Shown here: piece by piece, positions 42,136 through 63,838 of the stretch
How the letters are laid out: each line of letters begins with the position of its first letter
Numbering within the stretch: position 1 is the first letter of the stretch
NCBI GenBank assembly: GCA_964291415.2
Contig: OZ219918.1
Coordinates: forward strand, 416,001-480,000
DNA length: 64,000 nt
Source: Alphaproteobacteria bacterium
Lineage (GTDB): Bacteria > Pseudomonadota > Alphaproteobacteria > SP197
Direction: 5' to 3'
The notes under the pieces: generated by a model
What the model was told of the DNA's origin: nothing
Databases searched by the model: none
What the model saw: the letters and a program-made list of their open reading frames with translations, nothing else
Translations under genes and position numbers: made by a program

Positions 42136-42297
42136 GGCGGGTTCCTCACTGGCAGGTCGGGTCTTGTGCCGTCCTCTTTAGTCCACTTCCCCACAGAAGG
42201 CCACACTCCCGGGACGGTCAATCGCGACTCGCCGGCATGGTCCATGGCCGCTATGGTGACCGGCATTCGCCACGCCACGCAAAGCGGTTCTCCATTC

Positions 42298-45771: not shown

Positions 45772-46118
45772 GCCTTCATTGTACGGTCGGAACACGCTGA
45801 ACCATCGTTCCATTGGTCTTTCCGGTTCTCGGAGTAGCACCAGCGTGTGTCGGGCCGAACGACAAAGATCGGTTGCAAGGCCGCCCGATCGTTCATTGCT
45901 GAGGTCGGCGTCGGGTGCCTTTGTGTTGGCAGGCGAGTGTCAATCCGTCGTGACGAGGCTCAACACTGGTAGATGCTTGTCGCAAGGCAACGACTTGACA
46001 GGGTCGGGTCCCGATTGAACTTCGGTCACGGGCTGCGCGGGCACCGATGGAAGACGGCGCCCGCCATGTCCGTCAGCAGCTGATGTTTCCTGTCCGGGCT
46101 GGCCATTCAATCAGCGTC

Positions 46119-46985
46119 TCAGAGGATCTCCATCGGTGCCTGGGGTACCTCCTTCCAGAAATCGGGGTCGTGACCGGGGAATATTCGGGCGCCCCTGGCT
46201 CGCATTCGGCGCAGAAGCAGCAGCGAGTCCAGCATCTGCGAACGATCGTGGACCAGCTTCGGCAAATGAAGTTCCTCCAGGGTCTGACGGAAGTAGCAAG
46301 CGTCTGCCGCGAGCACGATGTCACCCGCTTCCAGACGAACCATGAGCGACTGGTGACCGGGAGTGTGACCGAAGGTAGGGATCGTCACCACAGTGCCATC
46401 GCCGAAGACATCATGCTCCCCGTGGACCTGGTGAACCAGGTGACCGTGGTCGTAGTCCTGCAGGTTGTAGGCATTGGCTTCCATAAGTTCGGGCGTATGG
46501 CCTGCCTCCCATTCCCTTTGCTGGATAATGACCTTGGCGTTGGGGATGAGTTCGTTGCCGCCGGAATGATCGAAGTGCAGGTGGCTGTTCACAACGTACG
46601 CAATCTGTTTGGGATCGATCTCGAGCTGATTGAGGCGCGAAGCGATGTCCTCACCGGGCCGGAAGTGAATGTCGAAGAACTTCGCCAGAGCACCGATACG
46701 GCCATGTGGGTCGTGTCCACTTTCGGGATGCAGGCCAGTGTCGAACAGAACATATCCTTTGGGGTGCTGGATCAGGTAGGTCGGGATGGGAAAGCGGATC
46801 CGACCCGACTCGCGTGCAAGCATCATGGAGACGTCAGCGCTGAGCCAGCCGCAGGTCATCGCATAGAGCTTGACAGCGGACGAATGACTCGACGAGCGCG
46901 CAACTGCGGTCGAGCGGGCCCCCTTCAGCGTCTCCCACCAGGCCTGGTTGCGCTCCAGGGCGAGCGCGCTCTCACGTGGGTCCAT
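46119..46985 (-). CDS. N-acyl-homoserine-lactonase family metallo-beta-lactamase-fold hydrolase
   Basis: SHLHFDHSG (HxHxDH); FDTG; DVFGDG; GHTPGHQS; ADACY; PGHDP. Confidence 0.85.
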   Translation of the reverse strand: MDPRESALALERNQAWWETLKGARSTAVARSSSHSSAVKLYAMTCGWLSADVSMMLARESGRIRFPIPTYLIQHPKGYVLFDTGLHPESGHDPHGRIGALAKFFDIHFRPGEDIASRLNQLEIDPKQIAYVVNSHLHFDHSGGNELIPNAKVIIQQREWEAGHTPELMEANAYNLQDYDHGHLVHQVHGEHDVFGDGTVVTIPTFGHTPGHQSLMVRLEAGDIVLAADACYFRQTLEELHLPKLVHDRSQMLDSLLLLRRMRARGARIFPGHDPDFWKEVPQAPMEIL

Positions 46986-49002
46986 GGCGCGTTCCGCTTG
47001 TTGTCATAGTGTCTATCCCGTCCGCGGCGCGGGGAATTCCGCCGGTCGCTGCCGAGTCCTCGGTGAGCGCAACAACCTTCTTGGTCGTCGAGGTCGAGAG
47101 TTCCATCCTGTAAGCGAGAAGCCAAATGAGAAGAACGCCCAGCCCCCACCATAAAAGCTGCCAGGCCCAGATGGAGGGCATCCGGAAATCCCAGCCCCCG
47201 TAGCCTGTGTCCGGCGCGCCAAACAGATAGTTGCCAATAACGATGCATGGCCCGACCGCGAAGAACAACCAAATCATCGTTGCGACCCAGGCGAAGGTGA
47301 CGAAGCGCCGCCTTCGCGCGGAGAGGCCGGCGTACTCCGCCAGGAAGCGGTGAATGCGGTAGCGACCCTCTGCACCGTCATCATCGCGTGTCAGGACCGA
47401 ACCAAGAATGCAGACAAGAAGATTGGCGACGAGACCCCAGGCAGCGGCATGGATGGTCCAGGGCCATTGACCCCAGGGCAGTGTGCCGCGAGTGAGCGCC
47501 TGTCCCAGCGGATCGGTCAGAACTACGACAATGGAGCCCACCACAATGCCGGCCGCAACGCCTTGCCGGGTGAACCAGCGGACCCACGCGACGCCCAGCA
47601 GCGCGGGCCAGAGCTGCACAGCGAGCGCCAGAGCCAGCCCGCCGAGCACGACCATGCCGTCGCGCTCGAGAGTTGCCATGAGAAGCGCGGCGACCGTGGC
47701 CAGCAGAGTCGCCACCCGGGCGAAGCGTTTCTGGAGCCGATCGTCGGCATGGGGATTGAAAAAGCGCATGTAGAGATCACGGGTGACGAGTGCGCCGGCA
47801 CTCGCCATGTAGGCGCCGCCTGCGGCCTTGATTGCGGCGATCATGCATACGGTCACGATGCCGAGAAGCCAGGGAGCAGACGCGCCGACAAGGTCGATCA
47901 GGTTCGCGACCAGCCTACCCTCCTCGCCGTTGTCGAGCGGTGGAAGAACGCGTTTCAGTTCCAGGCCTGCGGCGTTGACCTCCGGACTCGCACCTAGCAA
48001 AAGCCCGCCGAGACCCTGCAGTGTGACGAAAACGAAGAGAAGCACTCCCGCCGCACATGCCGACGCCCAGACCTGCTGCGGTGCGAAGGCGCCAGGATCC
48101 CGGCTGGCGAAGGCCCACATGGAGAACGCCGGTGATGCCTGGATGCCCATCAGGGCGACCATGAAGCTCATCACCATGAGACTGGTCCAGGGACCTCCCT
48201 GGGGCACCTCCTTGTTGAGCCCGTCGCTCCATTGCACCACGCCAGGTGTGGCGAACAACCCGTTGAAGTCGCCACCGCCATAGCCCAGTGTCGTTCCCCA
48301 TGGGCCTGTGGGTGTGCTTGCGATCACAGCCAAAGCCCTGTTGAGCGGGTCGAATCCGCCCACGAGATCAAGCGTCACAAGCCCCAGGATGCTGACGCCG
48401 ACAGCGATCAGCAGAGTTTGCAGTGTCGTGACGTACGCCACGGCTCGAAGTCCGCCGAGCGTCACGTAGATGACCAGGACGACGGCAAGGGTCCACATTG
48501 CCAAGTCGCGCGAGAGCAGGCCACCGGTTACGAGACTTATGAGGCCCCCTGCGAAGCCGAACAGCATACCGAGAAACGGGACGGCAAACAGAAGGGCGAC
48601 GATGACTGTGAACACACGGATGATATCGGAGCCGTAGTAGGCCGCGAACATCTCGCCTGGTGTGACGAAACCAAATCGCTTGCCGAGTATCCACTGCCGC
48701 TTGAGGAAGATCACCCCCGTCAGCGGCACGACGACAGCAGCGAATGCGATGTAGCCTGCCTGAAGGCCATCGCGCAGAATTAACGCGGGTCCGCCGATGA
48801 AGAGCCACCCGGCGAACGAGGTCGCCGTGGCCGCCATGACGAAAACCCAGGTGTTGAGACTGCGCCCGGCGACGAAGTAGGCGCTGGCAGTCTTGGCCTC
48901 GCGCGCACCCCTGACTCCCCAGAAAACGCAGTAGCTCCAATAAAGCACGGCGAAGAGGCCAAGCCAAAGCAGTCTCGACCCGTAGAGGCCGCCGTCGGTC
49001 AC
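46972..49002 (-). CDS. Sodium:solute symporter (SSS) family protein
   Basis: YFVAGR; AATATSFAGW; TLGGLRAVAY; many transmembrane segments; overlaps the lacI stop. Confidence 0.88.
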   Translation of the reverse strand: MTDGGLYGSRLLWLGLFAVLYWSYCVFWGVRGAREAKTASAYFVAGRSLNTWVFVMAATATSFAGWLFIGGPALILRDGLQAGYIAFAAVVVPLTGVIFLKRQWILGKRFGFVTPGEMFAAYYGSDIIRVFTVIVALLFAVPFLGMLFGFAGGLISLVTGGLLSRDLAMWTLAVVLVIYVTLGGLRAVAYVTTLQTLLIAVGVSILGLVTLDLVGGFDPLNRALAVIASTPTGPWGTTLGYGGGDFNGLFATPGVVQWSDGLNKEVPQGGPWTSLMVMSFMVALMGIQASPAFSMWAFASRDPGAFAPQQVWASACAAGVLLFVFVTLQGLGGLLLGASPEVNAAGLELKRVLPPLDNGEEGRLVANLIDLVGASAPWLLGIVTVCMIAAIKAAGGAYMASAGALVTRDLYMRFFNPHADDRLQKRFARVATLLATVAALLMATLERDGMVVLGGLALALAVQLWPALLGVAWVRWFTRQGVAAGIVVGSIVVVLTDPLGQALTRGTLPWGQWPWTIHAAAWGLVANLLVCILGSVLTRDDDGAEGRYRIHRFLAEYAGLSARRRRFVTFAWVATMIWLFFAVGPCIVIGNYLFGAPDTGYGGWDFRMPSIWAWQLLWWGLGVLLIWLLAYRMELSTSTTKKVVALTEDSAATGGIPRAADGIDTMTTSGTRHGPT

Positions 49003-50051
49003 CGGACCATCGCCCCCGCACGCCGGTCGCGATGCGTGTTGCGCGGGATCATTTCGCCTGCAATAGAGCGGTGAACAGGTGCCATGTCGGGATTGTCGTC
49101 GATTTCGCGGATCAACCTTACGGTCTCGGCCGCCATCCGCCGCATCGGATGACGATAGGTGGTCAGCGCATGGGAAGGCCAGCCAGCCATGGCAACGTCA
49201 TCGAATCCGACGACGGAGATGTCACGGGGTACGTCGCGCTTCAGTCCGTGACGCAGTGCATCAACTGTGCCAAAGGCGACGATGTCGTTGGCGCAGAATA
49301 TTGCGTCCAGATCGGGGACGGCGCGGATCAGGCGACAGGCCGCTGCATATCCGTCCTCGTAGGAGAACACCTCGGGAAGGTTGTCCCTGACGATCGTGAG
49401 GCCCGCCTCCGCGCAGCGCTCGACGAAGCCGCTGCCGCGGTCGATCGAGGTTGTCGCGTCGGGCGTACCGGCAATGTAGGCCATGTTGCGGTGGCCGGTT
49501 TCGATGAGGAACTCGGCGATCTCGCGACCGCCCCGCCTGTTGTCGCAGGTCACCGCAAAGGTCTCGGTTTCGGGAATATAGCGGTTGAAGAAGATCAGGT
49601 TGGTTCCGGTATCGATTGTCGCCATGGTGCGCTGGAACGAGACTGTTGCGGTCATGAGGATGATGTACTCGGGCTGATACAGCATGCCCTGTGGCAGCAC
49701 CTCGTCGGTCGTCTTTCCCTCGGGGACGTGAAACAGCATGACTCGGAGGCCGTGTTTTTGAAGTTCGCCGGTCAGGATCGCCATGACCTCTGGAAAGAAC
49801 GGGTTGAAGACGTCCGAGATGAAGATGCTGACGATGCGGGTCTTCTGGGTGATCAGGCTTCGAGCGAAGGGGTTGGGCTGGTATCCCATCGCCTTGGCGC
49901 GTGCGAGGATACGGTCGCGAGTATCCGGGGCGATCTGAGAGTCGGGCGAGAACGCACGCGAGACTGTCGAAATCGACACACCGAGTTCCTCGGCGACGTG
50001 CCGCGCCGCTACCGTCCTGCCGGCTGACTTTGGTTTTCCGGTATTGTCCAT
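48999..50051 (-). CDS. LacI-family transcriptional regulator
   Basis: VAEELGVSISTVSRA helix-turn-helix; YQPNPFARSL hinge; AIFCANDIVA; DISVVGFDD. Confidence 0.95.
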   Translation of the reverse strand: MDNTGKPKSAGRTVAARHVAEELGVSISTVSRAFSPDSQIAPDTRDRILARAKAMGYQPNPFARSLITQKTRIVSIFISDVFNPFFPEVMAILTGELQKHGLRVMLFHVPEGKTTDEVLPQGMLYQPEYIILMTATVSFQRTMATIDTGTNLIFFNRYIPETETFAVTCDNRRGGREIAEFLIETGHRNMAYIAGTPDATTSIDRGSGFVERCAEAGLTIVRDNLPEVFSYEDGYAAACRLIRAVPDLDAIFCANDIVAFGTVDALRHGLKRDVPRDISVVGFDDVAMAGWPSHALTTYRHPMRRMAAETVRLIREIDDNPDMAPVHRSIAGEMIPRNTHRDRRAGAMVR

Positions 50052-50172
50052 CGCCCCAGACCCGATCAGCGCTCCTCAGTCACTCTACGCACCGTGCCAA
50101 CACTTCCTCCACCCCGCTCCGTGGAAAACAGCTTACTGATACGGATCACGATTGATTGAGCGTATGCCTGGC

Positions 50173-50218
50173 TGCAAACCTTTGCAAGACGCAAGATACC
50201 ATGTTGCAAAGGTTTGCA
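50173..50218. promoter_or_regulatory. Pair of LacI-type operators in the divergent promoter region
   Basis: TGCAAACCTTTGCA (50173-50186) and TGCAAAGGTTTGCA (50205-50218); a -10-like TACCAT (50197-50202) lies between them. Confidence 0.75.
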
Positions 50219-50369
50219 TTGCCATTGTATCCAATCTAGGCTCGTCTCGGGCGAGCAGGGTTCAAGGCTTGTCGTCTGCCGATTCTGAGGGGTTAAGGCC
50301 TGACGCAGGACGGGGAGGCGCGACTGGCTGGCCCAGGTTCATGTTCATACACATTGGGAGGTTAAGGTA

Positions 50370-51542
50370 GTGACACAACTAACGAGAACCGCGGCCGCAC
50401 TGGCCGTCAGTCTGAGTGTCGGGACGGGTGCCGCATTGGCGGAAGGTCTCGACGAATTGCCGGAAGAGATAGTCGCCCGGACCTACAGCTCGGAAATGAT
50501 CGATCCGGCCCAGCCGGTCGAGGCAAGTATCTACCGTGACTGGAAATCACCAAGCGAACCGCCCTGGACGATCGGTTACGCCAGTTCCTATGCCGGTAAC
50601 ACCTGGCGGGCGGCCGTCATGGATCGGCTGATCCAGAGCATTCTGCCCAAGTGGCAGGAACTGGGATTGGTGGACGACGTCTTTGTCACCCAGTCCAACC
50701 TGAACGATTCGGTGCAGATCCAGCAGATGCGCCAGCTTGTTGATCAGGGTGTGGACGCGATCATCGTCTGCTGCTCGAACCCGACAGCACTCAATGCAAC
50801 GGTCAAGTATGCATATGAGCGAGGTGTGCCGACCTTCTCGTTCACCGGTTACCTGACATCACCCTATGCCGTGAACTCGTCAGTGAACTATCAGCTGGCC
50901 GGTTTCGAGATCGGCAAGTGGATGGCCGAAGAGGTTGGCGGTGAAGGAAGCATCCTTGTGGTCGAGGGCATTCCTGGCACTTCCGGTTCTGACTCGCAGC
51001 ACCGCGGCGTCCTGCTCGGTCTCGAGTCATACCCCGACATCGACATTGTCGGCGAGATCGCGGGCATGTGGACAGACCAGGTCGCCCAGGGTGAGGTTCA
51101 GAAGTGGTTGTCCACCAACCCTGGCCAGCTTGACGGCATCGTCGTGCAGTCGGCTGCGGAGATGGGCGTGTTGCGGGCCCTGCAACAATCGGGCCGGGAG
51201 ATGGTTCCTGTGGCGATTGGCGGCGAGCTCGGCGCCCTTTGCTACTGGCGCAAGAACCCTGGCTACATCAGCACGACCTTCCAGGTCTGGCCTCCCGGTG
51301 ATGATTTCGAGCTGATCTGGAACATCATGATGCGGACGCTTCAGGGTCAGGGCCCGAGGGTGCAGTCAATTCTCGTGGATCCATTCGAGTTCACTTATTC
51401 GGATCTCGAGGGTGTCCTCGACGAGAACTGCGACGAGAACTCCCAGCTGTGGCTCGAGGTCGGGCCTGCGGCCTGGGGTGCCGAAGACTATCTCGACCAG
51501 TTCTTCCTGCGTCCCGCAGATCCGACCCAGTACCAGCCCTGA
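50370..51542 (+). CDS. Sugar-type (periplasmic binding protein class I) ABC substrate-binding protein
   Basis: Signal peptide ending AALA; YAGNTWR; QIQQMRQLVDQGVDAIIV; VVEGIPGTSGS. Confidence 0.85.
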   Translation: MTQLTRTAAALAVSLSVGTGAALAEGLDELPEEIVARTYSSEMIDPAQPVEASIYRDWKSPSEPPWTIGYASSYAGNTWRAAVMDRLIQSILPKWQELGLVDDVFVTQSNLNDSVQIQQMRQLVDQGVDAIIVCCSNPTALNATVKYAYERGVPTFSFTGYLTSPYAVNSSVNYQLAGFEIGKWMAEEVGGEGSILVVEGIPGTSGSDSQHRGVLLGLESYPDIDIVGEIAGMWTDQVAQGEVQKWLSTNPGQLDGIVVQSAAEMGVLRALQQSGREMVPVAIGGELGALCYWRKNPGYISTTFQVWPPGDDFELIWNIMMRTLQGQGPRVQSILVDPFEFTYSDLEGVLDENCDENSQLWLEVGPAAWGAEDYLDQFFLRPADPTQYQP

Positions 51543-51584
51543 TCGGGCCGGTTTCGACTGAGGCCGTTTGACTCCGGATCGCTG

Positions 51585-53402
51585 ATGCCTTCCGAAGAAA
51601 CCGTGAGTTCCCAACAGGAGCTCCCCGGCGCCGCCGACCAGATGTCGGCGGCGCCGGCTTTCGTCGATGCGGATATTGTTGTGACCAATGTGCACAAGAC
51701 GTTCGGCGTCACGCGCGCGCTCGACGGAGTTTCCTTCAGTGCACGATGCGGCGAGATTCACGCTATCGTGGGTGGCAACGGTTGCGGCAAATCAACTCTG
51801 GCCAAGGTCATTTCGGGCGTCCTTCCCATCGACAGCGGTCAGGTGTCGGTTCTGGGACATGCACCCGGCAGCCCGCGCGAAGCGCGTCTGGCAGGCATCG
51901 CGACGGTCTTCCAGGAAGTTCTGGTGGCTGACCATCTGACGGTGCTCGACAATCTGTATGTCGGCGCTGACGGTCTCTGGTCCAAATCCCTGTCGTTCCG
52001 CGAAAAGTATGCAAGGGGCGAAGCCTTGATGCGTGACCTCAGCGGGGTTGATATCGACCCTGACGAGATCGTCGGTGGCTTGTCGCTGTCGATCAAGCAG
52101 TGGATCACCATCGGCCGCGCATTGATACAGGAACCCCGCGTCCTCATCCTCGATGAGTCCTCTGCAGCCCTCGATTTCGATTCGACCGAGAAGCTCTTCG
52201 AGAAGATGCGCGAACTGCGCGACAAGGGCGCCGCCGTGCTCATCGTGACCCATCGCATTGCCGAGCTGATTCGCGTATCCGACCGCGCCACGGTGCTGCG
52301 TGACGGGCGCGACGTTGGTGTACTGGCCAAGGAGGAAGTGACCGAACAGAACCTCTTGGGCCTGATGACCGGGAGGAGCCAGTCCACCGAGAGCGACGCC
52401 ACCAACTCGGTGGCGCCGGCCCGCGACGACACCGTGATGAGTGTACGTGGGCTCAAGGTTTGGGAAGGCAGCAAGGGTATCGACTTCGATCTCCACCGTG
52501 GCGAGGTGGTGGGTGTCGCCGGACTCGACGGGCAGGGCCAGGATGAGTTCGTGCGCGTGCTCGCCGGCGTCCAGCCCGCACTCGAAGGCGTACCCCTGGT
52601 GCGCAGTGGGCCCGGCAATCTGGCCGAGCTTCACGGACTTGAGGACGCTGATCGATTCCGTGTCGCCTACGTCTCGGGCGATCGCAAGCAGGAGGGAATC
52701 TTCCCCAACCTCTCGGTTTTCGAGAACCTTGCAATCGCGCTCTATCCCAGGGAACTGAAGACGCGCTTCGGCAATGTTATCGACTGGCCTTCACTGGCCA
52801 GCGTGTTCGAAAACTGGCGCCAGAAGCTCTCCATCAAGATCGGTTTGGCGTCCGACAAGGTCACATCGCTGTCGGGCGGCAATCAGCAGAAGGTGCTGAT
52901 CGGTCGCGCGATGGCCCTCAACCCGAGAATCCTTGTGCTCAACGACCCGGCGCGCGGCATCGACGTTGAGGCCAAGCGCGAACTTTATGATCATCTGCGC
53001 GACTTTGCCGCCCGAGGCGAATCCGTGGTCTTCATGTCGAGCGAACTTGAGGAGTTCATTGGACTTTGCACGCGCGTGATCGTGTTCCGTCATGGCGAGA
53101 TCTTCGACGCGTTCGCTGGCGACGACATCGAGCCGGCGCGCCTCCTCGAGGCCATGTTCGGCCAGACCTCCGGTCGTGGGGCCCGCCTTGCCGCGGGCGC
53201 GGATTCGGGACCAGCCGTTGTGGACAGTGATCCTGTGCCAGAGTCCGAGCGGGAAGCGCCGCGCAGGCAACATCGACCTCGGCCAGATGCAATCCGGATC
53301 ATTGACTTCGATGCCGAACGCAGGGAGCACCGCAGTCAGGGTGCAGTGGACACTCGGCAACCTGCGGAAAAGCGCATGAAGATAGTCTATTCGGACGGCT
53401 GA
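51585..53402 (+). CDS. CUT2-type tandem ABC ATPase with a C-terminal extension
   Basis: GGNGCGKST; VFQE; LDES; second half LSGGNQQK; about 80 extra aa after the last conserved helix. Confidence 0.92.
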   Translation: MPSEETVSSQQELPGAADQMSAAPAFVDADIVVTNVHKTFGVTRALDGVSFSARCGEIHAIVGGNGCGKSTLAKVISGVLPIDSGQVSVLGHAPGSPREARLAGIATVFQEVLVADHLTVLDNLYVGADGLWSKSLSFREKYARGEALMRDLSGVDIDPDEIVGGLSLSIKQWITIGRALIQEPRVLILDESSAALDFDSTEKLFEKMRELRDKGAAVLIVTHRIAELIRVSDRATVLRDGRDVGVLAKEEVTEQNLLGLMTGRSQSTESDATNSVAPARDDTVMSVRGLKVWEGSKGIDFDLHRGEVVGVAGLDGQGQDEFVRVLAGVQPALEGVPLVRSGPGNLAELHGLEDADRFRVAYVSGDRKQEGIFPNLSVFENLAIALYPRELKTRFGNVIDWPSLASVFENWRQKLSIKIGLASDKVTSLSGGNQQKVLIGRAMALNPRILVLNDPARGIDVEAKRELYDHLRDFAARGESVVFMSSELEEFIGLCTRVIVFRHGEIFDAFAGDDIEPARLLEAMFGQTSGRGARLAAGADSGPAVVDSDPVPESEREAPRRQHRPRPDAIRIIDFDAERREHRSQGAVDTRQPAEKRMKIVYSDG

Positions 53403-53413
53403 GGGCGGGAGCG

Positions 53414-53770
53414 ATGGAAATGAAGCGCATGAAGATCGTGGAGTTTGATGACGAGGGAAGGCCGGTCGAACGGCAGGGACCGACTGCATCTCCGCGCGTG
53501 ACGTCGGAATGCAGCGGGCCGGTCAGGATCGTGGCCTTTGGTGATGAACCCGAGGACAACCTCGGCGTGGAGACTGCACCGGACGCGCCGAAGATAAAGA
53601 TCAGGGAGTTTGATGGCGCTGGCGCGCCGAGACCGGCGGGTGAGCCAATGCGCTTTCGTATCCCGTCGGAAAAGAGCATCAGGGTTGTCGAGTTCGATGA
53701 CGACGGCAAGCCCAGGCGGCGCGAGAATGGTTCGGGTGCGCGTGGCATCAAGATTGTCGAGTTTGACTGA
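53414..53770 (+). CDS. Small hypothetical repeat protein ([IMV][KR][IV]x[EA]F[DG] five times)
   Basis: GGGAG RBS; repeats MKIVEFD, VRIVAFG, IKIREFD, IRVVEFD, IKIVEFD; lies inside the operon. Confidence 0.75.
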   Translation: MEMKRMKIVEFDDEGRPVERQGPTASPRVTSECSGPVRIVAFGDEPEDNLGVETAPDAPKIKIREFDGAGAPRPAGEPMRFRIPSEKSIRVVEFDDDGKPRRRENGSGARGIKIVEFD

Positions 53771-53821
53771 GCATCTGCCTTCCGGCCGGCGGGAAGGAAT
53801 GCGGAAAAGGGAAGGGCGAGC

Positions 53822-56044: not shown

Positions 56045-57468
56045 TGAAGCCCACACAGCACCGCTTCTACAAGTGGCTCGGGTTCCTCTTCGCGCTCCTG
56101 GTTGCCGGCGGCAGCGTGATTCTCGGAATCGTCGAGGAGATTGAAGCCCAGTACATTCTGTTCTCGGCGATCGCCACCTTCGCCATCGTGCTGTGGGCTT
56201 GGCATCACTTCTCGGTCCGCTGGGTCTACGATCTCGACGGCATGGCGCTCGATAGCATGAGCCGGGAGAATCGGGGATCGTCGGAAGAGCCGTCCGAAGT
56301 GCCGCATCACGAGCAAAGCACGGGCCGCTACGTGCGATTCCTCGCGCTCGAATACAAGCACATCATCATCGGTTTCCTGATTTTGCTTGGGTTGTTCCTG
56401 ATTGTCGCCTTCTCGGTGGAGGATTTCTGGACCTGGAACAACATCATCGCTTCTGTCGTCGTGGCGGTGTTCATCGGCATCGCCTTCATGCTCAATCGAA
56501 CGGTCTCCGAGAACTCGTCAGCCTTCATCGGCGTCACGGTCCTGCTTGGTCTTTTCATTGTCGGCTCGCTTGTCGTCGACGGCTTCTTCTCGGCGATCAA
56601 CATCAAGTCAATGCTGGTCTTTGCATCCTTTCTCGGGCTTGCATGCGTCGGTCAGACACTTGTTGTCCTGCTGGGTGGGCTGGATCTCTCGATTCCCTTC
56701 GTCATCGGTTCAGCCAACGTAGCGTTGCTCTATCTCCTGGGGCTCGGCGTGCCGTCCTGGTTCGCGGTGATCGCGATCCTGATCCTCGGGGCCATCATCG
56801 GGGTCATCAACGGCCTCCTCAGTTTTCGACTGCAGGGCCAGGCACTGATCGTCACGCTCGGTGTGGGCTTTGCGGTCGCAGGTGGCACGCAGATTCTGAC
56901 AAGCATCGGTACACGCTATTCGGGCAACGTCTTCGGCGTGGTGCCCGAGTGGCTCACCAATATCGCAGCGATGAATGGACGCACCTTCGGGCTCGACTTT
57001 CCGCCGGTGATCGTGATCTGGATCGCTGCGGCAATCTTGCTCACCATCGCGATGCGCAACACGGTCTTTGGGCGCAGGCTCTATGCGCTGGGTGGCAGCC
57101 GCAGAGCGGCCAGGCGTCTATCGATCTCGGAGCGCAATTACTGGATTGCGGTCTACGGAGCATCGGGCTGCATCGCGGCGATGACTGGAGCCCTGCTGCT
57201 GGGCTGGTCGGGTGGCGGCTTCATCGGTGTCGGGGATCCTTACCTCTTCATGACACTTGCTGCTGTGGTGATTGGTGGCACCTCGCTCCTGGGCGGCTGG
57301 GGCGGTTATGGCTTCACCGTAATCGGTGTGCTCGTACTGCAGGTGCTGTCGTCCTTTCTGGTCGGCATCGGCCTGTCCTTCGAGGGCCAGCAGTTCGTTT
57401 TCGGCCTGCTGATCCTGCCCATGGTCGCCATGTATGCCCGCTCGCCGCACATTCGAACACAGATCTGA
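56044..57468 (+). CDS. Sugar-type ABC permease with an N-terminal multi-transmembrane extension of about 150 aa
   Basis: GQTLVVLLGGLDLS; IVTLG; FGRRLYALG; IGGTSLLGG; 474 aa. Confidence 0.88.
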   Translation: MKPTQHRFYKWLGFLFALLVAGGSVILGIVEEIEAQYILFSAIATFAIVLWAWHHFSVRWVYDLDGMALDSMSRENRGSSEEPSEVPHHEQSTGRYVRFLALEYKHIIIGFLILLGLFLIVAFSVEDFWTWNNIIASVVVAVFIGIAFMLNRTVSENSSAFIGVTVLLGLFIVGSLVVDGFFSAINIKSMLVFASFLGLACVGQTLVVLLGGLDLSIPFVIGSANVALLYLLGLGVPSWFAVIAILILGAIIGVINGLLSFRLQGQALIVTLGVGFAVAGGTQILTSIGTRYSGNVFGVVPEWLTNIAAMNGRTFGLDFPPVIVIWIAAAILLTIAMRNTVFGRRLYALGGSRRAARRLSISERNYWIAVYGASGCIAAMTGALLLGWSGGGFIGVGDPYLFMTLAAVVIGGTSLLGGWGGYGFTVIGVLVLQVLSSFLVGIGLSFEGQQFVFGLLILPMVAMYARSPHIRTQI

Positions 57469-57513
57469 ACGAGGCAGGTATGACATCAGGACGCCCTATC
57501 GAGGAACGACACC

Positions 57514-58236
57514 ATGAGTGAGATGCTGCAACCAAATGACATCGTCGGCATGTCATTCTGGCTCATGACCCTCGCCATGGCGGGTGCGGCAGCATTCTTC
57601 CTGCTGGAGCGTCGTCGCGTGGAGCGCCGCTGGCAGGCGGCGCTGACCACGCTCGGCGTCGCCATGCTGGTCTCGGCACTGAGCTATGTGAATCTCGCGG
57701 GCGTCTGGGCAGGCAAGGGCGAAGTGTCGACGATTTACCGTTTCGCCGAGTGGCAGCTGACGGTGCCGCTCCTTACAGTGACCTTCTACCTGGTGCTGTG
57801 TGCGGTGACGAAGGTTCCAGCAGCATTGTTCTGGCGCCTTCTGGTGGCCTCGGGTGTACTCACGGCTGCGGGTTACCTCGGTTCGGCGGGCTTCGTCAGC
57901 CCAACACTGGGCTTCCTCGTTGCGCTCGCCGGCGGTCTCTACATCCTGGGCGAAATCTACCTTGGCGAGGCGGGAAGGCTCAATGCCAACAGCGGCAATC
58001 AGAAGGCCCAGACCGCGTTCAGCGCGATGCGCCTTATCGCAACCATCGGCTGGGCGATCTATCCGCTGGGCTACTTCATGGAGTACCTGGGCGGCGGCGT
58101 CGACAATGAAGCGATCAATCTGATCTACAACCTCGCTGATTTTCTCAACAAGCTCGCATTTGGCCTCATCGTCTGGCAGGCCGCGGCGAACGACAGGGAA
58201 GCGGACGGAAATCGCTCGCCGCTGTCAGGCGCATGA
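57514..58236 (+). CDS. Proteorhodopsin-family microbial rhodopsin, flotillin-associated type, ETT motif
   Basis: Seven transmembrane segments; SFWL...FFLLER; YRFAEWQLTVPLL; GWAIYPLGY; YNLADFLNK with Schiff-base Lys213. Confidence 0.92.
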   Translation: MSEMLQPNDIVGMSFWLMTLAMAGAAAFFLLERRRVERRWQAALTTLGVAMLVSALSYVNLAGVWAGKGEVSTIYRFAEWQLTVPLLTVTFYLVLCAVTKVPAALFWRLLVASGVLTAAGYLGSAGFVSPTLGFLVALAGGLYILGEIYLGEAGRLNANSGNQKAQTAFSAMRLIATIGWAIYPLGYFMEYLGGGVDNEAINLIYNLADFLNKLAFGLIVWQAAANDREADGNRSPLSGA

Positions 58237-58297
58237 GCGGACAAAGAAACAAGAGATCCGTGAACCGCGATGTGGGGCGCAGAAGGGGAGTTGAAGC

Positions 58298-60361
58298 ATG
58301 ACCGGAGCTGACATCATCACCACGATCCTGCTTGCAGGCATCCTGATCGCGGTCATCGTCTACCTGCTGTACTGGCTGTACCGGCGCTCGTCCAAGGAAG
58401 TCGCCTTCGTGCGCACAGGCCTGGGTGGCGAAAGGGTCGTCATAACCGGTGGTGCGCTTGTGCTGCCCATCGTCCACAACGTGACGCTGGTGGGAATGAA
58501 CACGTTGCGTCTGGAGGTCAGGCGGGACGGCGATCAGGCACTCATCACCAAGAACCGGATGCGCATTGACGTGGTGGCCGAGTTCACCGTGCGCGTGCGG
58601 TCTGACCCGGAGGCCGTGTCGTTGGCAGCCCAGACGCTGGGACGGCGATCCATGAGTGCCGATGATGTCAAGGAGGTTGTCCAGGGTCGTTTCGTTGATG
58701 CCCTTGCAAGCGTTGCCGCCCGGATGACCATGGACGACATCCAGGAGAACCGTGACGTCTACATGAAGGATGTCCGGGCAATCATCGAGGAGAGCGTGGC
58801 GCGCAACGGACTGGAAATCGAGGCCGTGTCGCTCACCGGCCTCGACCAGACCAGCATCGAACGGTTCAATCCGTCAAACGCCTTTGACGCCGAAGGTCTG
58901 ACCCGACTGACCGAACAGATCGAAACACGCAAGAAGGCCAGAAATGACATAGAACAGGACACGATGGTTGCGATTCGGTCGAAGAACCTCGAGGCCGAAG
59001 TCGAGGCGCTCGAAATTGACCGCAAGAGCGAATACGCGCGGCTCGAACAGGAACGCGAGGTCGCAAAGCAGCGGGCTTTGGAGAAAGCACAGATCACGAT
59101 GGAACGGGCTGCCCGGGACCGGGAGGCTCAAGAGGCGGAGATTCGCGCCGAAGAGGAAGTCGAGATTGCCCGCATTCAGCGTGAAAAGGCCCTGGAGGCC
59201 GAGCGGTCCTTGCGTGAGACGACGCTGACGGAGGAGATCGAGGCCCGGCGCAAGCACCGCAACGACGTGGAGCGCGACACCCAGATTGCGATCCGCGCGA
59301 AGGACCGTCAGGCGGAAGTGGAGATCCTGGAGATCGAGAAGGAGATCGAATTCGCAAGGCTCGGTCAGCAAGAAGCCATTGCCGGACAGCGCGCAACGCA
59401 GATGGCCGAGATTGCCAGGCGTCAGTCGAGTGGCGAGCAGGAAGCGGAGACCGCTCGCATTGCCGCGCTGGAGGCCATTGAGCGCGCTCGCATTCTTCAG
59501 GAAAGAGCGGTGGAGTCCGAGCGCATCGCGCGCAATCAGGAAGTCGATCGCCTGGAGGTGCTGCGCCGCAAGGTTCTGCAACTCGAGGAGCAGGAGCGCG
59601 CCATTGCCATCACACGCAAGGAGAAGGACAAGGCCGAGGCGCAGGCCGAAACCGAGGAGGCCCGCGCCCGGGCCGTCGAAGCCGAGGAGAAAGTCGCCTC
59701 GGCGCGGGAGCGGGAGGCTGCTGAGCGACGCAAGCTCGTCGAACTCATCGAGGCTGCTCGTGCGGTCGAGAGCGAAGCGCTCCAGCTCACCACCATTGCC
59801 GCGGCGCAGACCAACGCAGCTGAACAGAAGGCTGCGGCCGACCGTTTCGCCACACTGTCGGAGAAGCTGCGTTACGAAGTCGATGCCGAGGGCAGGCGTG
59901 CCCTCAACGAGGCGGAGAACATCCGCACCGATGACAACCGTGAACATGCTCTGCGCATGAAGCTTCTGGAGCACATCGAGGGCATCGTGCGTGAGAGCGT
60001 CAAGCCGCTGGAGAACATCGACTCCATCAAGATCCTTCAGGTCGACGGCGTACCGGGCGTCAACAGTCCGTCGGACGTTGGCCGCGGCGGAGCCGGTTCC
60101 GGTGATCCCGCCTCTGGTGGGGGCAGCATGACCGACCGCATCGTGAATTCGGCCATGAAGTATCGCACTCAGGCGGCATTCGTAGACGGCTTGATGAAGG
60201 ACCTGGGACTGCCGATGGAGCACCTCGGCAGCGCGGGTGGCCTGTCCTTCCGCAACTTTGCTGAAGCACCTCCCGAGGATGTCGCGGACGGTAAGCCGGG
60301 TGGAGACCATACCGACGACGATAACGTCGAGGACAGCGGGCCATCAGACGACGACAAATAG
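58298..60361 (+). CDS. Flotillin (SPFH/band 7, YqiK-like) protein
   Basis: N-terminal transmembrane segment; AFVRTGLGG; AAQTLG; NGLEIEAVSLTGLDQT; FNPSNAFDAEGLT; long EA-rich coiled coil; KPLENIDSIKI. Confidence 0.93.
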   Translation: MTGADIITTILLAGILIAVIVYLLYWLYRRSSKEVAFVRTGLGGERVVITGGALVLPIVHNVTLVGMNTLRLEVRRDGDQALITKNRMRIDVVAEFTVRVRSDPEAVSLAAQTLGRRSMSADDVKEVVQGRFVDALASVAARMTMDDIQENRDVYMKDVRAIIEESVARNGLEIEAVSLTGLDQTSIERFNPSNAFDAEGLTRLTEQIETRKKARNDIEQDTMVAIRSKNLEAEVEALEIDRKSEYARLEQEREVAKQRALEKAQITMERAARDREAQEAEIRAEEEVEIARIQREKALEAERSLRETTLTEEIEARRKHRNDVERDTQIAIRAKDRQAEVEILEIEKEIEFARLGQQEAIAGQRATQMAEIARRQSSGEQEAETARIAALEAIERARILQERAVESERIARNQEVDRLEVLRRKVLQLEEQERAIAITRKEKDKAEAQAETEEARARAVEAEEKVASAREREAAERRKLVELIEAARAVESEALQLTTIAAAQTNAAEQKAAADRFATLSEKLRYEVDAEGRRALNEAENIRTDDNREHALRMKLLEHIEGIVRESVKPLENIDSIKILQVDGVPGVNSPSDVGRGGAGSGDPASGGGSMTDRIVNSAMKYRTQAAFVDGLMKDLGLPMEHLGSAGGLSFRNFAEAPPEDVADGKPGGDHTDDDNVEDSGPSDDDK

Positions 60362-60406
60362 ACGACCAGCGCAGGCGGAACGTCACTGACTTAAGGGGAC
60401 TGGGAC

Positions 60407-60796
60407 ATGAGTATCGATGTCAACAGCTGGGCAGCCAAGTACAAGCAGCTCACCAATGCTGACGAAACCATTCAATGCATGGGAAGGTATTACACCTGTA
60501 CGTTCATGTTCGACATGGGCACACGGAAGGTCATCGTCGAAATGCACGATGGCAAGGTGAAGGGCATCAACACGAACCCGGCGCCGATGGATCCCTACGA
60601 TTTTGCCTTGCGCGCCAGTCCTGAGACCTGGCGCGAGTTTGCCCAGCCGATGCCCAAGCCAATGTATCACGGCATCTTTTCGGCGAGCTTCCAGCGTGAC
60701 CTCAAACTCGAGGGCAATTTGCTGGTGTTGATGCAGAACCTGAGGAATTTCACCGTGCAGTTCGAGTTGCTGCGCCAGTCCGGCGTCCCGGTCTAG
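60407..60796 (+). CDS. SCP2 (sterol carrier protein-2)-like lipid-binding protein
   Basis: 129 aa; DFALRASPETWREF and LKLEGNLLVLMQ match the SCP2-like pattern. Confidence 0.6.
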   Translation: MSIDVNSWAAKYKQLTNADETIQCMGRYYTCTFMFDMGTRKVIVEMHDGKVKGINTNPAPMDPYDFALRASPETWREFAQPMPKPMYHGIFSASFQRDLKLEGNLLVLMQNLRNFTVQFELLRQSGVPV

Positions 60797-60848
60797 GCCG
60801 GTCGCCACTACGCCACGAAACACGAACGCCAAGTCGAGGGCAACAACC

Positions 60849-61700
60849 ATGGTCAAGCATTCTCCGGTCACCGGCCGCTACGTCACGATCGAAGTTGACG
60901 GCAACGAGTACAAAGTCTTCTACCTGCACAATGGCACCGGACAGCCGCTGATTTGTCAGCACACGGCGGGTGCTCACAATCATCAATGGCGTGGCCTTCT
61001 GGAGGACGAGGAGATCACCCGGGACTACAACGTGATTGCCTACGACCTGCCGCGTCACGGCAAGTCGGATCCGCCGCACAACAAGGAGTGGTGGAAAGAT
61101 GAGTACCGCCTGACGGCTGACCACTACGTCAACTTCATCGTCACGTTATGCGACGCACTTGAACTCAAGGAACCGATCTTCATGGGGTCGTCCTTCGGCG
61201 GCAACGTGGCGCTGCAGCTTGCGCTGAGGCGGCCGGACCGTTTCAAGGCGGTGATTCCCGTTGAGGCAGCCGACTATGCGCCTGGCTTCTTTCTCGATTG
61301 GTGGCGCCATCCGCACGCCAACGCCGCCCAGGTCTGCGCCTCGGGAGTGTGGGACTTGATGGCCCCGCAATCCCCGGACATGGACCGATGGCTCACTTGG
61401 CACTACTACACGCAGGGTTCGGAGGCCTTCAAAGGCGATCTCTACTTCTATTCGGTCGACCACGACCTGCGTGACGAGCTTGTCAACATCGACGGGAGGC
61501 GGTGCCCTGTCATCATGATGACGGGGACATACGATTACCTGACGCCCCCCGAGGCAACCGAGAATACCGCGCGCCAGATCAAGGGCGGCGTCTACATTGA
61601 AATGGAGGACATCGGGCATTTTCCCATGAGCGAGAATCATGAACTGTTCCGTGTCTATCTCAAGGAGGCGCTGCGCATCATCAGGGAGCGCAAAGGCTGA
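60849..61700 (+). CDS. Alpha/beta-fold hydrolase
   Basis: HTAG; AYDLPRHGKS; nucleophile elbow GSSFGG; GTYDYL; GHFPMSEN. Confidence 0.9.
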   Translation: MVKHSPVTGRYVTIEVDGNEYKVFYLHNGTGQPLICQHTAGAHNHQWRGLLEDEEITRDYNVIAYDLPRHGKSDPPHNKEWWKDEYRLTADHYVNFIVTLCDALELKEPIFMGSSFGGNVALQLALRRPDRFKAVIPVEAADYAPGFFLDWWRHPHANAAQVCASGVWDLMAPQSPDMDRWLTWHYYTQGSEAFKGDLYFYSVDHDLRDELVNIDGRRCPVIMMTGTYDYLTPPEATENTARQIKGGVYIEMEDIGHFPMSENHELFRVYLKEALRIIRERKG

Positions 61701-62094
61701 CACATCGCCTGTACGGGCAAGGGCGCGATCGTGGATCCCGCCGTCGGTTTCCAGTCACGCGTTGACTGCGGGACTTGACGTCACGGTATCGGGCTCATTC
61801 TTGAGTTCTGGTGCGGGCGCGCTCCACGTTTCGGGCGATGAGGCAGAGTGTCGGGATGACGAAACAGACTGGAGTTGCCGCGGGGACTCAACATGATCGG
61901 CTACTTCGAGGACGGTTTTCCCGGCGCCCATGCCCAGCGGTGCCTGCTCGCCAGGTCCGGTTGACGAGAAAAACCCCGCCATTTCCTGCAGCGACGCCGT
62001 GCATTGCTGACGGTCCGGCATGGCGCCGTGGTGTCCGGCCATCGGGCGTTGCGAGCCTGGCGTCTGGCTCGATCCGACAAGACGAGGCAGTTTC

Positions 62095-62985
62095 ATGAAC
62101 GCACACGAGGGACATGTGCCGCTCTGCCAGGGAGCCGATCCGTCGCCACGCCCTTCGTGGGTCGGGATGCCGGAGGGGGCCTGCGACGCGCACATGCACA
62201 TCTTCGGGGCCCGCGCACGCTATCCGATGGTGCCGGACCGCAACTATACTCCGCCGGAAGCAACGGTCGAAGCCTACGAGGCGCTGGCCCGTGTGCTTCA
62301 CATTCGGCGAACGGTGATCGTCCAGCCCAGCGTCTACGGTGTCGACAATGCGTGCACGCTCGATGCTCTGCTGGCCCTGTCGCTTGAAGCCCGTGCCATC
62401 GTGGCAGTCGACAACAGCGTGAGCGACGCCGAGCTTCAGCGCCTGCATGCCCGAGGCGCCCGGGGCATTCGCTTCAATCTGCTGATGAGAGGCGGTATCG
62501 GGATCACGGACGCCGAATGCCTTGCCGAGCGCATCAAGGGCATGGGCTGGCATATCGAGGTGATGATGGACGTTTCCTCCGACCCGGAGCTTACCGAGCG
62601 CCTCGGCCGTCTCGGTGTGCCAGTCGTGTTCGATCACATCGGTCATATCCGACCGGGCACTCGCACTGATGATCCGGGTTTCCAGGCCATGGTCCGACTG
62701 GTGGGAGATGGGGGCGCCTGGGTCAAGCTCTCGGGTGCCTACCGCGTCACGGTCGAGGATCGGACCCCCTATGCGGATGTCGGCGCGCATGTCCGTGTCC
62801 TGCTCGAAGTCAATCCGCAACGGTGCCTCTGGGCCACCGACTGGCCGCACCCAGGCATCAACGTCCCGATGCCCAACGACGGCGCCCTGCTTGACATGCT
62901 CGGCTACTGGGCACGCGACGCAGCGCTGCGCCGTCGCATACTGGTCGACAACCCCGCTGATCTCTACGGCTTCGGAGCGCTCTAG
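62095..62985 (+). CDS. Amidohydrolase_2 family protein, LigI (2-pyrone-4,6-dicarboxylate lactonase)/sugar-lactonase-like
   Basis: CDAHMHIFG; VQPSVYGVDN; RGIRFN; FDHIG; WVKLSGAYR; WATDWPHP. Confidence 0.85.
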   Translation: MNAHEGHVPLCQGADPSPRPSWVGMPEGACDAHMHIFGARARYPMVPDRNYTPPEATVEAYEALARVLHIRRTVIVQPSVYGVDNACTLDALLALSLEARAIVAVDNSVSDAELQRLHARGARGIRFNLLMRGGIGITDAECLAERIKGMGWHIEVMMDVSSDPELTERLGRLGVPVVFDHIGHIRPGTRTDDPGFQAMVRLVGDGGAWVKLSGAYRVTVEDRTPYADVGAHVRVLLEVNPQRCLWATDWPHPGINVPMPNDGALLDMLGYWARDAALRRRILVDNPADLYGFGAL

Positions 62986-63390
62986 TCCGAGCACAGCCAT
63001 TCATTTGTCAAGGTCAGCCGGATCCGCAGGTGACGTGACGGTGAATTCACCGTGAGATTTCATGCCGTCGGTTCTTCCAACAATGCACCGGTCACGCATC
63101 CACAACGCGGCTGGCCCCATCAGACCGCCATATGATGCTCGCGGGGTATGCTCCCAGGGCATCGACGCACCCTCAAGGGCGTGTTCAATGGTGCCCGTAG
63201 CGTCGATCGCCTGCCTGGACCGCAGTCTCTCATCGACATTCCAACATCTGCGGGCGTTCGTGGATCAGCGTTAGCTGAAGGCTTTCCTTGGAGGTTGGAG
63301 CGAAGCAGCAGGCTTTGGCCGCAGGCACGATGTCACGAGCCTCCAGACGAATCAGGCGCGAGTGGCGCAAGCGGGGACAAGGAGCAATCC

Positions 63391-63771
63391 ATGATGGACC
63401 TGAAACGAAGCGGTGTGATCGTGTTCACCGAGCAGTACGAGGCGTGTGTCGACTTCTATCGTCGGGTCCTGGAACTGCCGGAAATGTTCTCGCTCGATGA
63501 CGAGCATTCCACGCTCACCTGCCTGGACATGGGCGGGAGCTACCTGATGATCGAAACCGGCGGCACGGCGATGCCGAAAGGGCGATCCATCGAGCAATGC
63601 CCGGTCAAGCTGAGGTTCAACGTCGCCGACGTCGATGCTGCCGCCCGTCTTCTGGAGTCGCGCGGCGTCATCGTCGTCATCAGACGAGAGGCCTGGGGAA
63701 CTGTCGGCGATTTCGTCGATCCGGACGGGAACCGCTGTTCGCTGCGCGACGAAGACTCGTTCCTTCCGTAA
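63391..63771 (+). CDS. VOC (glyoxalase/bleomycin resistance) family protein
   Basis: AAGGAG RBS; CVDFYRRVLEL; LRFNVADVDAA; WG...FVDPDGN. Confidence 0.85.
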   Translation: MMDLKRSGVIVFTEQYEACVDFYRRVLELPEMFSLDDEHSTLTCLDMGGSYLMIETGGTAMPKGRSIEQCPVKLRFNVADVDAAARLLESRGVIVVIRREAWGTVGDFVDPDGNRCSLRDEDSFLP

Positions 63772-63838
63772 GTTCCCGGAGGGTGTTTCACCAGCGACAC
63801 TCGTCCATGAGGGCGCAGGTTCCGCCACGCCCTTTCAG

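Follow-up and report, generated by a model that had tools for sequence, protein, structure and literature searches.

We analysed a 64,000-nt stretch of DNA (the window) from an Alphaproteobacteria bacterium (assembly GCA_964291415.2, contig OZ219918.1, positions 416,001–480,000), in which positions 46119–62985 hold a divergent locus that brings together an opsin of the FArhodopsin (FAR) lineage, a flotillin, an ATP-binding cassette (ABC) importer and a LacI-family regulator. Judged by gene content and order, this locus is a homologue, in a compact alphaproteobacterial form, of the FAR gene cluster described in Pelagibacterales (SAR11), HIMB59 and Pseudothioglobus (Haro-Moreno et al., 2023, PMC10308929). 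Genes were assigned from the list of open reading frames (ORFs) together with Pfam and NCBIfam searches of the window proteins. These bear out the gene list given in an earlier sequence-only reading of the locus, the 13 genes, two LacI-type operators and short gaps all lying where it had placed them.

The right arm, on the forward strand, opens with a CUT2-type periplasmic binding protein (50370–51542, 390 residues; Pfam Peripla_BP_4, 4.4e-36), followed by a double-cassette ABC ATPase with a disordered C-terminal tail (51585–53402, 605 residues; Pfam and NCBIfam), a repeat protein of 118 residues with five IKIVEFD-type copies and without a Pfam or NCBIfam family (53414–53770) and two ABC permeases (53822–56044, 740 residues; 56044–57468, 474 residues). 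The opsin comes next (57514–58236, 240 residues; Pfam Bac_rhodopsin, 6.6e-32), then the flotillin (58298–60361, 687 residues; Pfam Flot, 1.9e-31, and Band_7, 8.3e-14), an SCP2-fold protein (60407–60796, 129 residues) and an α/β-hydrolase with a GSSFGG nucleophile elbow (60849–61700, 283 residues; Pfam Abhydrolase_1). The gaps between these genes are 42, 11, 51, −1, 45, 61, 45 and 52 nt, in line with the maximum of about 60 nt first given for this arm.

The left arm, on the reverse strand, consists of the genes for the LacI-family regulator (48999–50051, 350 residues; Pfam LacI helix–turn–helix and Peripla_BP_3), an SSS symporter with about 16 hydrophobic segments by hydropathy (46972–49002, 676 residues; Pfam SSF, 5.4e-31) and, at its end, an MBL-fold lactonase-like hydrolase (46119–46985, 288 residues; Pfam Lactamase_B, 4.2e-22). 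Its genes overlap by 4 and 14 nt, and a divergent spacer of 318 nt separates the two arms.

Conservation and putative control of the locus

An alignment of opsin relatives was used to search one genome per species. Of the 601 stretches matched, 597 were confirmed, and the best 80 were kept. Among these, the eight loci with the closest opsins (L001–L008; 59–93% identity) are labelled as Alphaproteobacteria metagenome-assembled genomes (MAGs; contigs of 2.0–3.4 Mb), Rhodospirillaceae bins (one labelled Spongia) and a ‘Bradyrhizobiaceae’ MAG, and have GC contents of 61–70%. The order ATPase–permease–permease–opsin–flotillin–SCP2–hydrolase is found on one strand in all eight. The binding protein is present in seven of them (64–95% identical in the related loci), L006 beginning inside the ATPase gene, and the SSS gene in six; the sequences of L006 and L007 stop at the ABC genes or shortly before them. 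In each of the other 72 loci (L009–L080) the opsin match has none of the cluster neighbours, and the opsins carry the DTE motif of ordinary proteorhodopsins. An orthologue of the MBL-fold enzyme (61–64% identity) follows the hydrolase gene in L004, L005, L006 and L008.

Downstream of the right arm, 319 nt after the hydrolase gene, lies a gene for an Amidohydro_2 protein resembling 4-sulfomuconolactone hydrolase and LigI (62020–62985, forward strand; Pfam and NCBIfam). This enzyme had been counted as part of the locus, at a distance of about 400 nt; it is indeed present, at a shorter distance. Since it follows the cluster in L001 and L002 only (two of eight loci), and the genes after the hydrolase or the MBL gene otherwise differ from locus to locus, we treat it as a peripheral neighbour and not as a core component. 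Downstream of the cluster in L001 (17415–20704) we observed genes for a steroid 5-α-reductase-like protein, a 3-β-HSD/epimerase-family protein and a cytochrome P450, at a distance that would fall beyond the end of the window. In L005 transposase and integrase-core genes (15589–16738) stand directly after the MBL gene; together with the plasmid copies described below, they hint that the cluster is mobile.

When a plasmid collection was searched with the hydrolase, 111 records matched, and six plasmid records in all contain an opsin of the kind described below for the plasmid loci. Replicons listed as plasmids carry the cluster in four cultured, non-pathogenic strains: Pararhizobium gei ZFJT.2T (p2, conjugative), Martelella sp. 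AD-3, Hoeflea sp. IMCC20628 and Shinella sp. PSBB067. In the first three, a divergent IclR gene faces the run SCP2-like–hydrolase–AttM lactonase–binding protein–ATPase, which continues with two permeases, a ‘bacteriorhodopsin’, flotillin, a membrane protein of 141 residues, a ‘hypothetical’ protein of 637–649 residues and an Fe-alcohol dehydrogenase; in Martelella a succinate-semialdehyde dehydrogenase follows, within the stretch seen. The permeases have about 455–476 residues, one being missing from the Hoeflea gene table. The ‘hypothetical’ protein is a homologue of the window SSS symporter (32–34% identity; 31–34% for the SSS homologues of the plasmid-collection loci). Shinella has the same core, with the SCP2–hydrolase pair placed between the ATPase and the permeases. 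The order permease–permease–opsin–flotillin–(small transmembrane protein)–SSS recurs in all four carriers. The linkage of the rhodopsin to ABC genes, flotillin, SCP2 and hydrolase that had been noted in the window is therefore conserved in eight of eight chromosomal loci and in four loci of the plasmid collection.

Two side observations concern these plasmid records. The Pararhizobium gei plasmid has a second CUT2 ABC set (L081, 1–6264), 6 kb upstream of the opsin cluster, with a LacI regulator 44% identical to that of the window and another gene of the N-acylhomoserine lactone (AHL)-lactonase family. Moreover, the scores of CP070278.1, filed under ‘Dysgonomonadaceae bacterium zrk40’ (246,192 bp), are identical to those of NZ_CP066788.1, a Martelella lutilitoris plasmid (246,197 bp); because the scores are equal and the two records share a source description, they are probably one replicon, with a wrong organism label on the former.

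We may wonder whether opsin and flotillin form a membrane-organisation unit of their own, for example one that aids a separate proteorhodopsin, and merely share an island with an unrelated sugar/lactone uptake operon. A heterocomplex with a proton-pumping paralogue has been hypothesised by Haro-Moreno et al. (PMC10308929), and in the SAR11 data of that paper used here co-transcription is shown for opsin and flotillin only, the ABC genes being on the other strand. However, the opsin gene stands directly after the second permease gene in 12 of the 12 non-SAR11 loci examined, Table S2 of the same paper marks the four ABC proteins as present in all three marine lineages, and the Hyphomicrobiales opsins have neither the lysine nor the counterion. 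We consider such an independent unit unlikely.

The LacI-family regulator combines a LacI helix–turn–helix with a periplasmic-binding-protein-like effector domain and has 14-bp palindromes in its own divergent spacer, and is thus predicted to be a repressor of the LacI type. Operator 1, TGCAAACCTTTGCA (50173–50186), and operator 2, TGCAAAGGTTTGCA (50205–50218), its reverse complement, are the sole matches without mismatch to TGCAAANNTTTGCA in the 64 kb and make up a perfect 15-nt inverted pair, the second lying 32 nt further on. With up to two mismatches, TGCAAANNTTTGCA matches four times in the window compared with 0.78 expected, a count of four being reached in one of 100 shuffles. LacI orthologues (47–96% identity) are found in L001, L002, L003, L005 and L008, in each case together with the SSS gene divergently upstream, and the spacer between lacI and the binding-protein gene contains the same type of palindrome in all five. 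In L004, a complete locus without a LacI gene in which the SSS gene is directly divergent from the binding-protein gene (769–3047), no operator-like palindrome occurs anywhere in its 20.7 kb. The two LacI-type operators proposed for the divergent spacer are present, and palindromes of this type co-occur with LacI across the loci. Because the gaps do not exceed 61 nt and the order is conserved, the right arm is probably one transcription unit.

The opsin and the question of retinal

The residue numbering in the literature applies to the window opsin, since it aligns without gaps to PsFAR-like sequences. Its residues are S54, S57, R76, E79, T83, V84, T90, G120, G141, D209 and K213, and it also keeps W80, W180 and Y183. 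The key motif is thus ETT (E79, T83, T90), without a proton-donor carboxylate, whereas in the 62 distinct DTE sequences E90 is present in 62 and H57 in 61 (T90 and S57 in the window opsin).

A tree was built from 75 rows sampled from 201 sequences: every second match from P0005 to P0083, every fourth from P0084 to P0124, L001–L008 and 17 proteorhodopsin loci, with P0037, P0080 and P0081 (fused or truncated) excluded. The window clade takes up 47 of these rows (support 98), and its sister is an H84-type group of 11 rows (support 100), database proteins that are equated with the published FARs by residues alone. The two groups unite at 99, apart from the 17 DTE rows.

The Pfam Bac_rhodopsin match and the 48–52% identity to SAR11 proteorhodopsins would also be expected of an ordinary light-driven proton-pumping proteorhodopsin lying by chance beside a sugar ABC operon. 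We regard this as very improbable: the donor position is T90 and offers no carboxylate, serines replace His at 57 and Ala at 54, the opsin stands outside the DTE clade at 99, and the gene neighbourhood is conserved, whereas 72 proteorhodopsin loci are without it. The view that the window opsin is not a normal pump is supported by its sequence, because it has T90, no His at 57 and S54, and branches with the FARs and not with the DTE pumps. This supports the sequence-only reading, which called it a non-pumping rhodopsin.

Whether it binds retinal is a separate question. According to the parts of the preprint by Kovalev et al. used here (bioRxiv 10.1101/2025.04.29.651185), PsFAR binds no retinal owing to H84 and E120, and position 84 is aromatic ‘in all FARs’. 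Retinal is bound (covalently, 498 nm) only by the H84V/E120G double mutant of PsFAR, whose photocycle is near-bistable and which does not pump. The window clade was compared at these positions in 83 distinct sequences, a grouping partly defined by residues 84 and 90 that agrees with the tree, in which it is monophyletic. At position 84 the residues are V, A, L, I and T, with His or an aromatic residue in none of the 83 sequences, and at position 120 they are A and G. Gly occupies position 141 in 82 of 83, where proteorhodopsins and H84-type FARs have Trp. Of the 83 sequences, 59 retain K213; the other 24 have a replacement (R in 19, V in four and P in one, a truncated row).

On the tree, these replacements of K213 arose several times, and they include the opsins of L003 (10001–10675) and L007 (7489–8196), whose clusters are otherwise intact. 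The opsins of the plasmid collection (L081, 19739–20440; L083, 21845–22546; L084, 21909–22610; L085, 12893–13600) are 32–38% identical to that of the window and have G79 with R213 or L213 (Leu in Shinella), and so possess neither counterion nor lysine. That the locus persists without the Schiff-base lysine argues that its function needs no retinal. On the other hand, K213 and an open V84/G120 pocket are both retained in the opsin of the window, which may thus have a light-dependent role.

The opsin of this clade might accordingly be pictured as a functional, retinal-binding photoreceptor whose photocycle is slow and transports nothing; by way of it, light would modulate the ABC importer or the assembly of the flotillin. 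K213, D209, R76, W80, W180, Y183, V84 and G120 are all as such a protein would have them, and the retinal-restored PsFAR mutant described above, together with the clade-wide retention of K213 in 59 of 83 sequences and the absence of His or aromatic residues at position 84, would suit it. It is less easily reconciled with the repeated loss of K213 from unchanged loci, with Gly at position 141 in place of the Trp of proteorhodopsins and H84-type FARs, and with the lack of blh and crt genes from the larger ORFs of the window. When 40 such ORFs were scanned with Pfam, neither a carotenoid, blh or transducer family nor another opsin turned up, as had been said of retinal synthesis and transducer genes. 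We take the photoreceptor to be a possible but rather unlikely explanation of the locus.

A carotenoid ‘fenestration’ was also considered, with G141 as the equivalent of xanthorhodopsin (XR) G156. It was rejected on the alignment in Table S4 of PMC10308929, where XR G156 aligns with GPR F152, which is F134 in the window opsin (Phe in 78 of the 83 clade sequences), and where position 141 of the window opsin corresponds to GPR W159.

The importer, the flotillin and the enzymes

The importer has the composition of a CUT2 system: a Peripla_BP_4 binding protein, a fused double ATPase and two BPD_transp_2 permeases (Pfam, NCBIfam). The NCBIfam scores of its genes are far under every equivalog cut-off, and the best PDB matches of the binding protein are the CUT2 binding proteins 4rs3, 5hko and 4rsm (about 1e-22). 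Both permeases are extended. In the first, the BPD_transp_2 match is confined to residues 49–315 and is followed by about 400 extra C-terminal residues with about ten extra hydrophobic segments; in the second it lies at residues 187–458, after about 185 extra N-terminal residues with about four extra segments. Hydropathy gives about 20 and 14 hydrophobic segments in total, compared with the usual ten.

All eight related loci have a counterpart of the small ORF that separates the ATPase gene from the first permease gene, and their alignment stays in register. The products of these ORFs consist of four to five copies of [IVM][KR][IV]x[ED]F[DG] joined by low-complexity linkers, and their C-terminus is the motif itself, usually ...KIVEFD, as in the repeat protein of the window. 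Among the 49 predicted proteins of the window (18,644 residues), the strict motif occurs only in the repeat protein (four times) and in the ATPase tail. This tail (53292–53402) carries IRIIDFD (residue 570) as well as MKIVYSD (residue 598), which with IKILQVD in the flotillin is one of the looser matches in the window. At least one copy is present in the tails of ten of the ten orthologous ATPases examined, including the three plasmid-borne ones without a separate repeat ORF.

The flotillin has one N-terminal transmembrane segment, then RRSSK, an SPFH/Band_7 domain, a long coiled region and a Flot domain, and with this anchor and these domains it is a flotillin in architecture. Its N-terminal 210 residues are 65–97% identical in the 120 relatives listed, and across 44 flotillins the strand I577-K-I-L-Q-V-D-G584 varies little or not at all. 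A position-specific scoring matrix built from 37 motif instances ranks SIKILQVD of the flotillin eighth of 18,301 windows, as the best match outside the ABC proteins; its score is just 5.2 bits compared with 17–30 for true sites, which makes it a lead only. A complex prediction with two copies of flotillin residues 505–645 and the repeat protein gave no answer for or against an interaction, with a score of 0.00, a mark of 0.32 and controls that did not fold.

The Pfam SCP2 match of the 129-residue protein (17.2 bits) is below the cut-off of 21.3, and three of its 53 relatives match Pfam SCP2. An AlphaFold2 model computed with 53 phmmer relatives reached a pLDDT of 95.2 (38.5 with nine sequences). 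Its top Foldseek matches are the SCP2 proteins 1wfr and 2cx7 (TM 0.69–0.72), with UbiJ-SCP2 and the SCP2-like domain of alkylsulfatases as further PDB matches, and the SCP2 fold of the 60407–60796 product is confirmed at the level of the model.

The α/β-hydrolase is exceptionally conserved, being 91–99% identical across L001–L008, where the opsin is just 59–93% identical. It has 1,640 database relatives at E ≤ 1e-30, and the 120 cluster representatives listed, which belong to several phyla (Actinomycetota and Bacillota among them), are 74–90% identical; the sources named include Candidatus Pelagibacter (85%), Pseudomonas putida (82–83%), Stutzerimonas and Roseovarius, and further Actinomadura, Thermomonospora, Streptosporangium, Domibacillus, Effusibacillus and Paenibacillus. 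At 52% of its positions, invariance reaches 95% or more in the 121 sequences. A Rhodococcus qingshengii plasmid carries an SCP2-like gene (56%) and the hydrolase gene (76%) by themselves, beside an aldehyde dehydrogenase gene under a LysR regulator, with no opsin or flotillin. For the hydrolase and the SCP2-like protein, the ESM Atlas offered no more than generic names. The best PDB match of the MBL-fold enzyme is the N-acylhomoserine lactonase 9khq (2.8e-38).

The remainder of the window holds housekeeping alphaproteobacterial genes (dnaE, methylmalonyl-CoA mutase, ETF, ribonucleotide reductase, hemC/hemY), its GC content is 60–72%, and no Rfam family was found in 45000–64000. An aminotransferase gene (40747–42135, reverse strand) overlaps an indolepyruvate-ferredoxin-oxidoreductase-like ORF (41596–45771, forward strand) by about 540 nt on the opposite strand; the true start of the latter gene is probably downstream of the longest-ORF start.

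Interpretation and relation to known systems

The reading that we favour, with a probability of roughly 55%, is that an opsin that does not harvest light and a flotillin are parts of a LacI-repressed import and hydrolysis system of the FAR type. The LacI-family repressor would bind the two palindromes in the 318-nt spacer and hold both arms down until a small-molecule inducer arrives. The right arm would then be read as a single unit, making the CUT2-type importer and its companions. The importer permeases are predicted to carry about 14 extra membrane segments, and the ATPase tail and its small companion six to seven IKIVEFD-type copies. Opsin and flotillin may be accessory or organising subunits of the transport system in the membrane, possibly in physical association with it, rather than light harvesters; the opsin has no proton donor, and the retinal lysine is gone from close relatives that carry the same locus. 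The SCP2-fold protein and the ultra-conserved hydrolase appear to be a fixed two-gene unit which, with the MBL-fold enzyme, would process the imported compound or a related hydrophobic ester or lactone, and the SSS symporter may move the substrate or the product.

Several observations weigh against this reading. As regards control, a scan for promoters and terminators remained at chance (four promoter-like sites compared with 3.1 expected, and 12 terminator-like sites compared with 11.4) and picked out no such site in the spacers of the window, and the gaps of 45–61 nt may contain internal promoters. LacI is not universal, L004 being without it and three plasmid loci having IclR. In SAR11, the ABC operon and the opsin–flotillin unit are on opposite strands with lineage-specific genes between them (PMC10308929), so that coupling there, in the material of that paper used here, is by cluster and not by operon. 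As regards the opsin, that of the window could itself bind retinal, to judge from the conserved K213, D209, W80, W180, Y183 and V84/G120. The substrate class, finally, is weakly founded. The nearest solved relatives of the binding protein are CUT2 sugar/polyol binders; the hydrolase, with a best PDB match at E 2.9e-10, has only distant characterized relatives, namely esterases, meta-cleavage hydrolases and D14/RsbQ, whose E-values run from 1e-10 to 1e-6; and the MBL-fold enzyme reaches 186.5 bits with its best NCBIfam family, AttM, compared with a cut-off of 390. The window moreover contains no homologue of the Fe-alcohol dehydrogenase or succinate-semialdehyde dehydrogenase of the plasmids. 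The earlier suggestion of a lactone substrate is thus favoured by AttM, Fe-alcohol dehydrogenase and IclR on the plasmids, and by the succinate-semialdehyde dehydrogenase of Martelella, but finds little in the window enzymes or in a sugar/polyol-like binding protein.

A bolder extension, which we put forward as speculative and rather improbable as a whole, would make FAR clusters mobile ‘caged transport metabolons’. The importer would be lodged in a flotillin assembly or attached to it, along with a hub of opsin fold that in most lineages has ceased to need retinal; the IKIVEFD motifs would serve as multivalent tethers, possibly copying IKILQVDG of the flotillin; and the SCP2–hydrolase unit would take a hydrophobic γ-lactone or ester at the membrane. 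The V84/G120 clade would then represent an ancestor-like state that is competent for retinal, and blind FARs would have emerged from this state more than once.

The main value of the locus is that it makes FArhodopsin function experimentally approachable. The portions of the 2023 and 2025 papers used here, which deal with uncultured streamlined plankton, offer no functional handle. The window and its relatives bring ordinary-sized Alphaproteobacteria, LacI and IclR regulators, neighbours from lactone catabolism and cultured plasmid carriers, and with cultured carriers and recognisable regulators knock-outs, inducer screens and co-purification become possible. In addition, the sister clade, with its unblocked retinal channel and scattered lysine loss, constitutes a natural series for a rhodopsin turning light-independent. 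In the open-access PMC and bioRxiv literature we found no report of the compact LacI-controlled form in ordinary-sized genomes, of the IclR/blc-linked plasmid forms in cultured Hyphomicrobiales, or of the IKIVEFD motif and the ultra-conserved SCP2–hydrolase pair, nor of the V84/G120 sister clade, to which freshwater FArhodopsins of PMC10308929 may belong.

The closest known system is the FAR cluster itself. That FArhodopsins adjoin flotillin genes had been given as known in the sequence-only reading and is indeed on record (PMC10308929; bioRxiv 10.1101/2025.04.29.651185). Its further proposal, a coupling of rhodopsin and flotillin to an elaborated ABC importer, is not new, because the extended ABC genes are already listed in Table S2 of PMC10308929. 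In that table, the cluster of the SAR11 single-amplified genome AG-390-L03 comprises a FArhodopsin of 234 residues, a flotillin of 658, an SCP2 protein of 129, an α/β-hydrolase of 284, an SSS protein of 688 and an AHL-lactonase-family protein of 278. Its ABC run consists of a binding protein of 400 residues, an ATPase of 581, a small hypothetical protein ending in KIKVVYFD and permeases of 774 (20 transmembrane segments) and 466 residues (14 transmembrane segments). The main text of the paper, in the sections used here, mentions neither the ABC genes nor LacI.

Compared by eye with this table, the window shares the SCP2-like protein, the hydrolase, the SSS symporter, the long-permease ABC importer and the MBL-fold enzyme. 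Opsin, long flotillin, SCP2-like protein and hydrolase follow each other in the same order in the window and in SAR11, and in both the CUT2 ABC set includes a small protein, encoded after the ATPase and ahead of permeases of about 770 and 470 residues. Both opsins have S54, the published FAR signature, and are without a proton-donor carboxylate, and that of the window stands apart from the DTE pumps with a same-strand flotillin 61 nt further on. The key motifs given for FARs are DTT, DTL and DNI, with E79 in some marine Pelagibacterales FARs (Table S4). In contrast to the published form, the window has its ABC operon immediately before the opsin gene and in the same orientation, together with LacI and operators, and the DMFase-like, 139-residue, 121-residue, Fe-alcohol dehydrogenase, biotin-carboxylase and PxpA genes are absent. 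The window genome has a GC content of 62–65% and is not streamlined, and the related loci are on contigs of 2–3.4 Mb. The aromatic residue at position 84 is also wanting: H/F84, E/Q120 and W141 of the FAR opsins (PMC10308929) are V84, G120 and G141 in the window opsin and its clade.

Among characterized opsins, PsFAR (bioRxiv 10.1101/2025.04.29.651185) shares the numbering (R76, D/E79, D209, K213), S54, the missing proton donor and the predicted lack of pumping with the window opsin. It differs in that the window clade, with V/A/L/I/T at position 84 and G/A at 120, has as its natural state what was engineered in the retinal-restored mutant. Rh-noK (PMC10308929) is likewise an opsin fold without the Schiff-base lysine in part of a family; these proteins are xanthorhodopsin relatives in tandem with a pump, whereas here the lysine loss is scattered within a clade that is linked to flotillin and ABC genes.

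As for the importer, CUT2 systems for ribose, xylose, galactofuranose and AI-2 (Lsr) have the same binding protein, fused ATPase and permease pair. Unlike them, the window has longer permeases, a motif-bearing ATPase tail and an extra repeat protein. BlcR of Agrobacterium is an IclR-type protein. In the blcABC (attKLM) pathway, γ-butyrolactone is converted to γ-hydroxybutyrate (GHB), then to succinic semialdehyde and to succinate (PMC3907764). The three plasmid relatives with a PGAP-named AttM, an Fe-alcohol dehydrogenase and a divergent IclR resemble this system as described there, and the Martelella locus also has the succinate-semialdehyde dehydrogenase. The window departs from it, with an AttM-like MBL-fold enzyme below the cut-off, neither dehydrogenase, and LacI instead of IclR, and blcABC itself, in the same source, comes with no transporter, opsin or flotillin.

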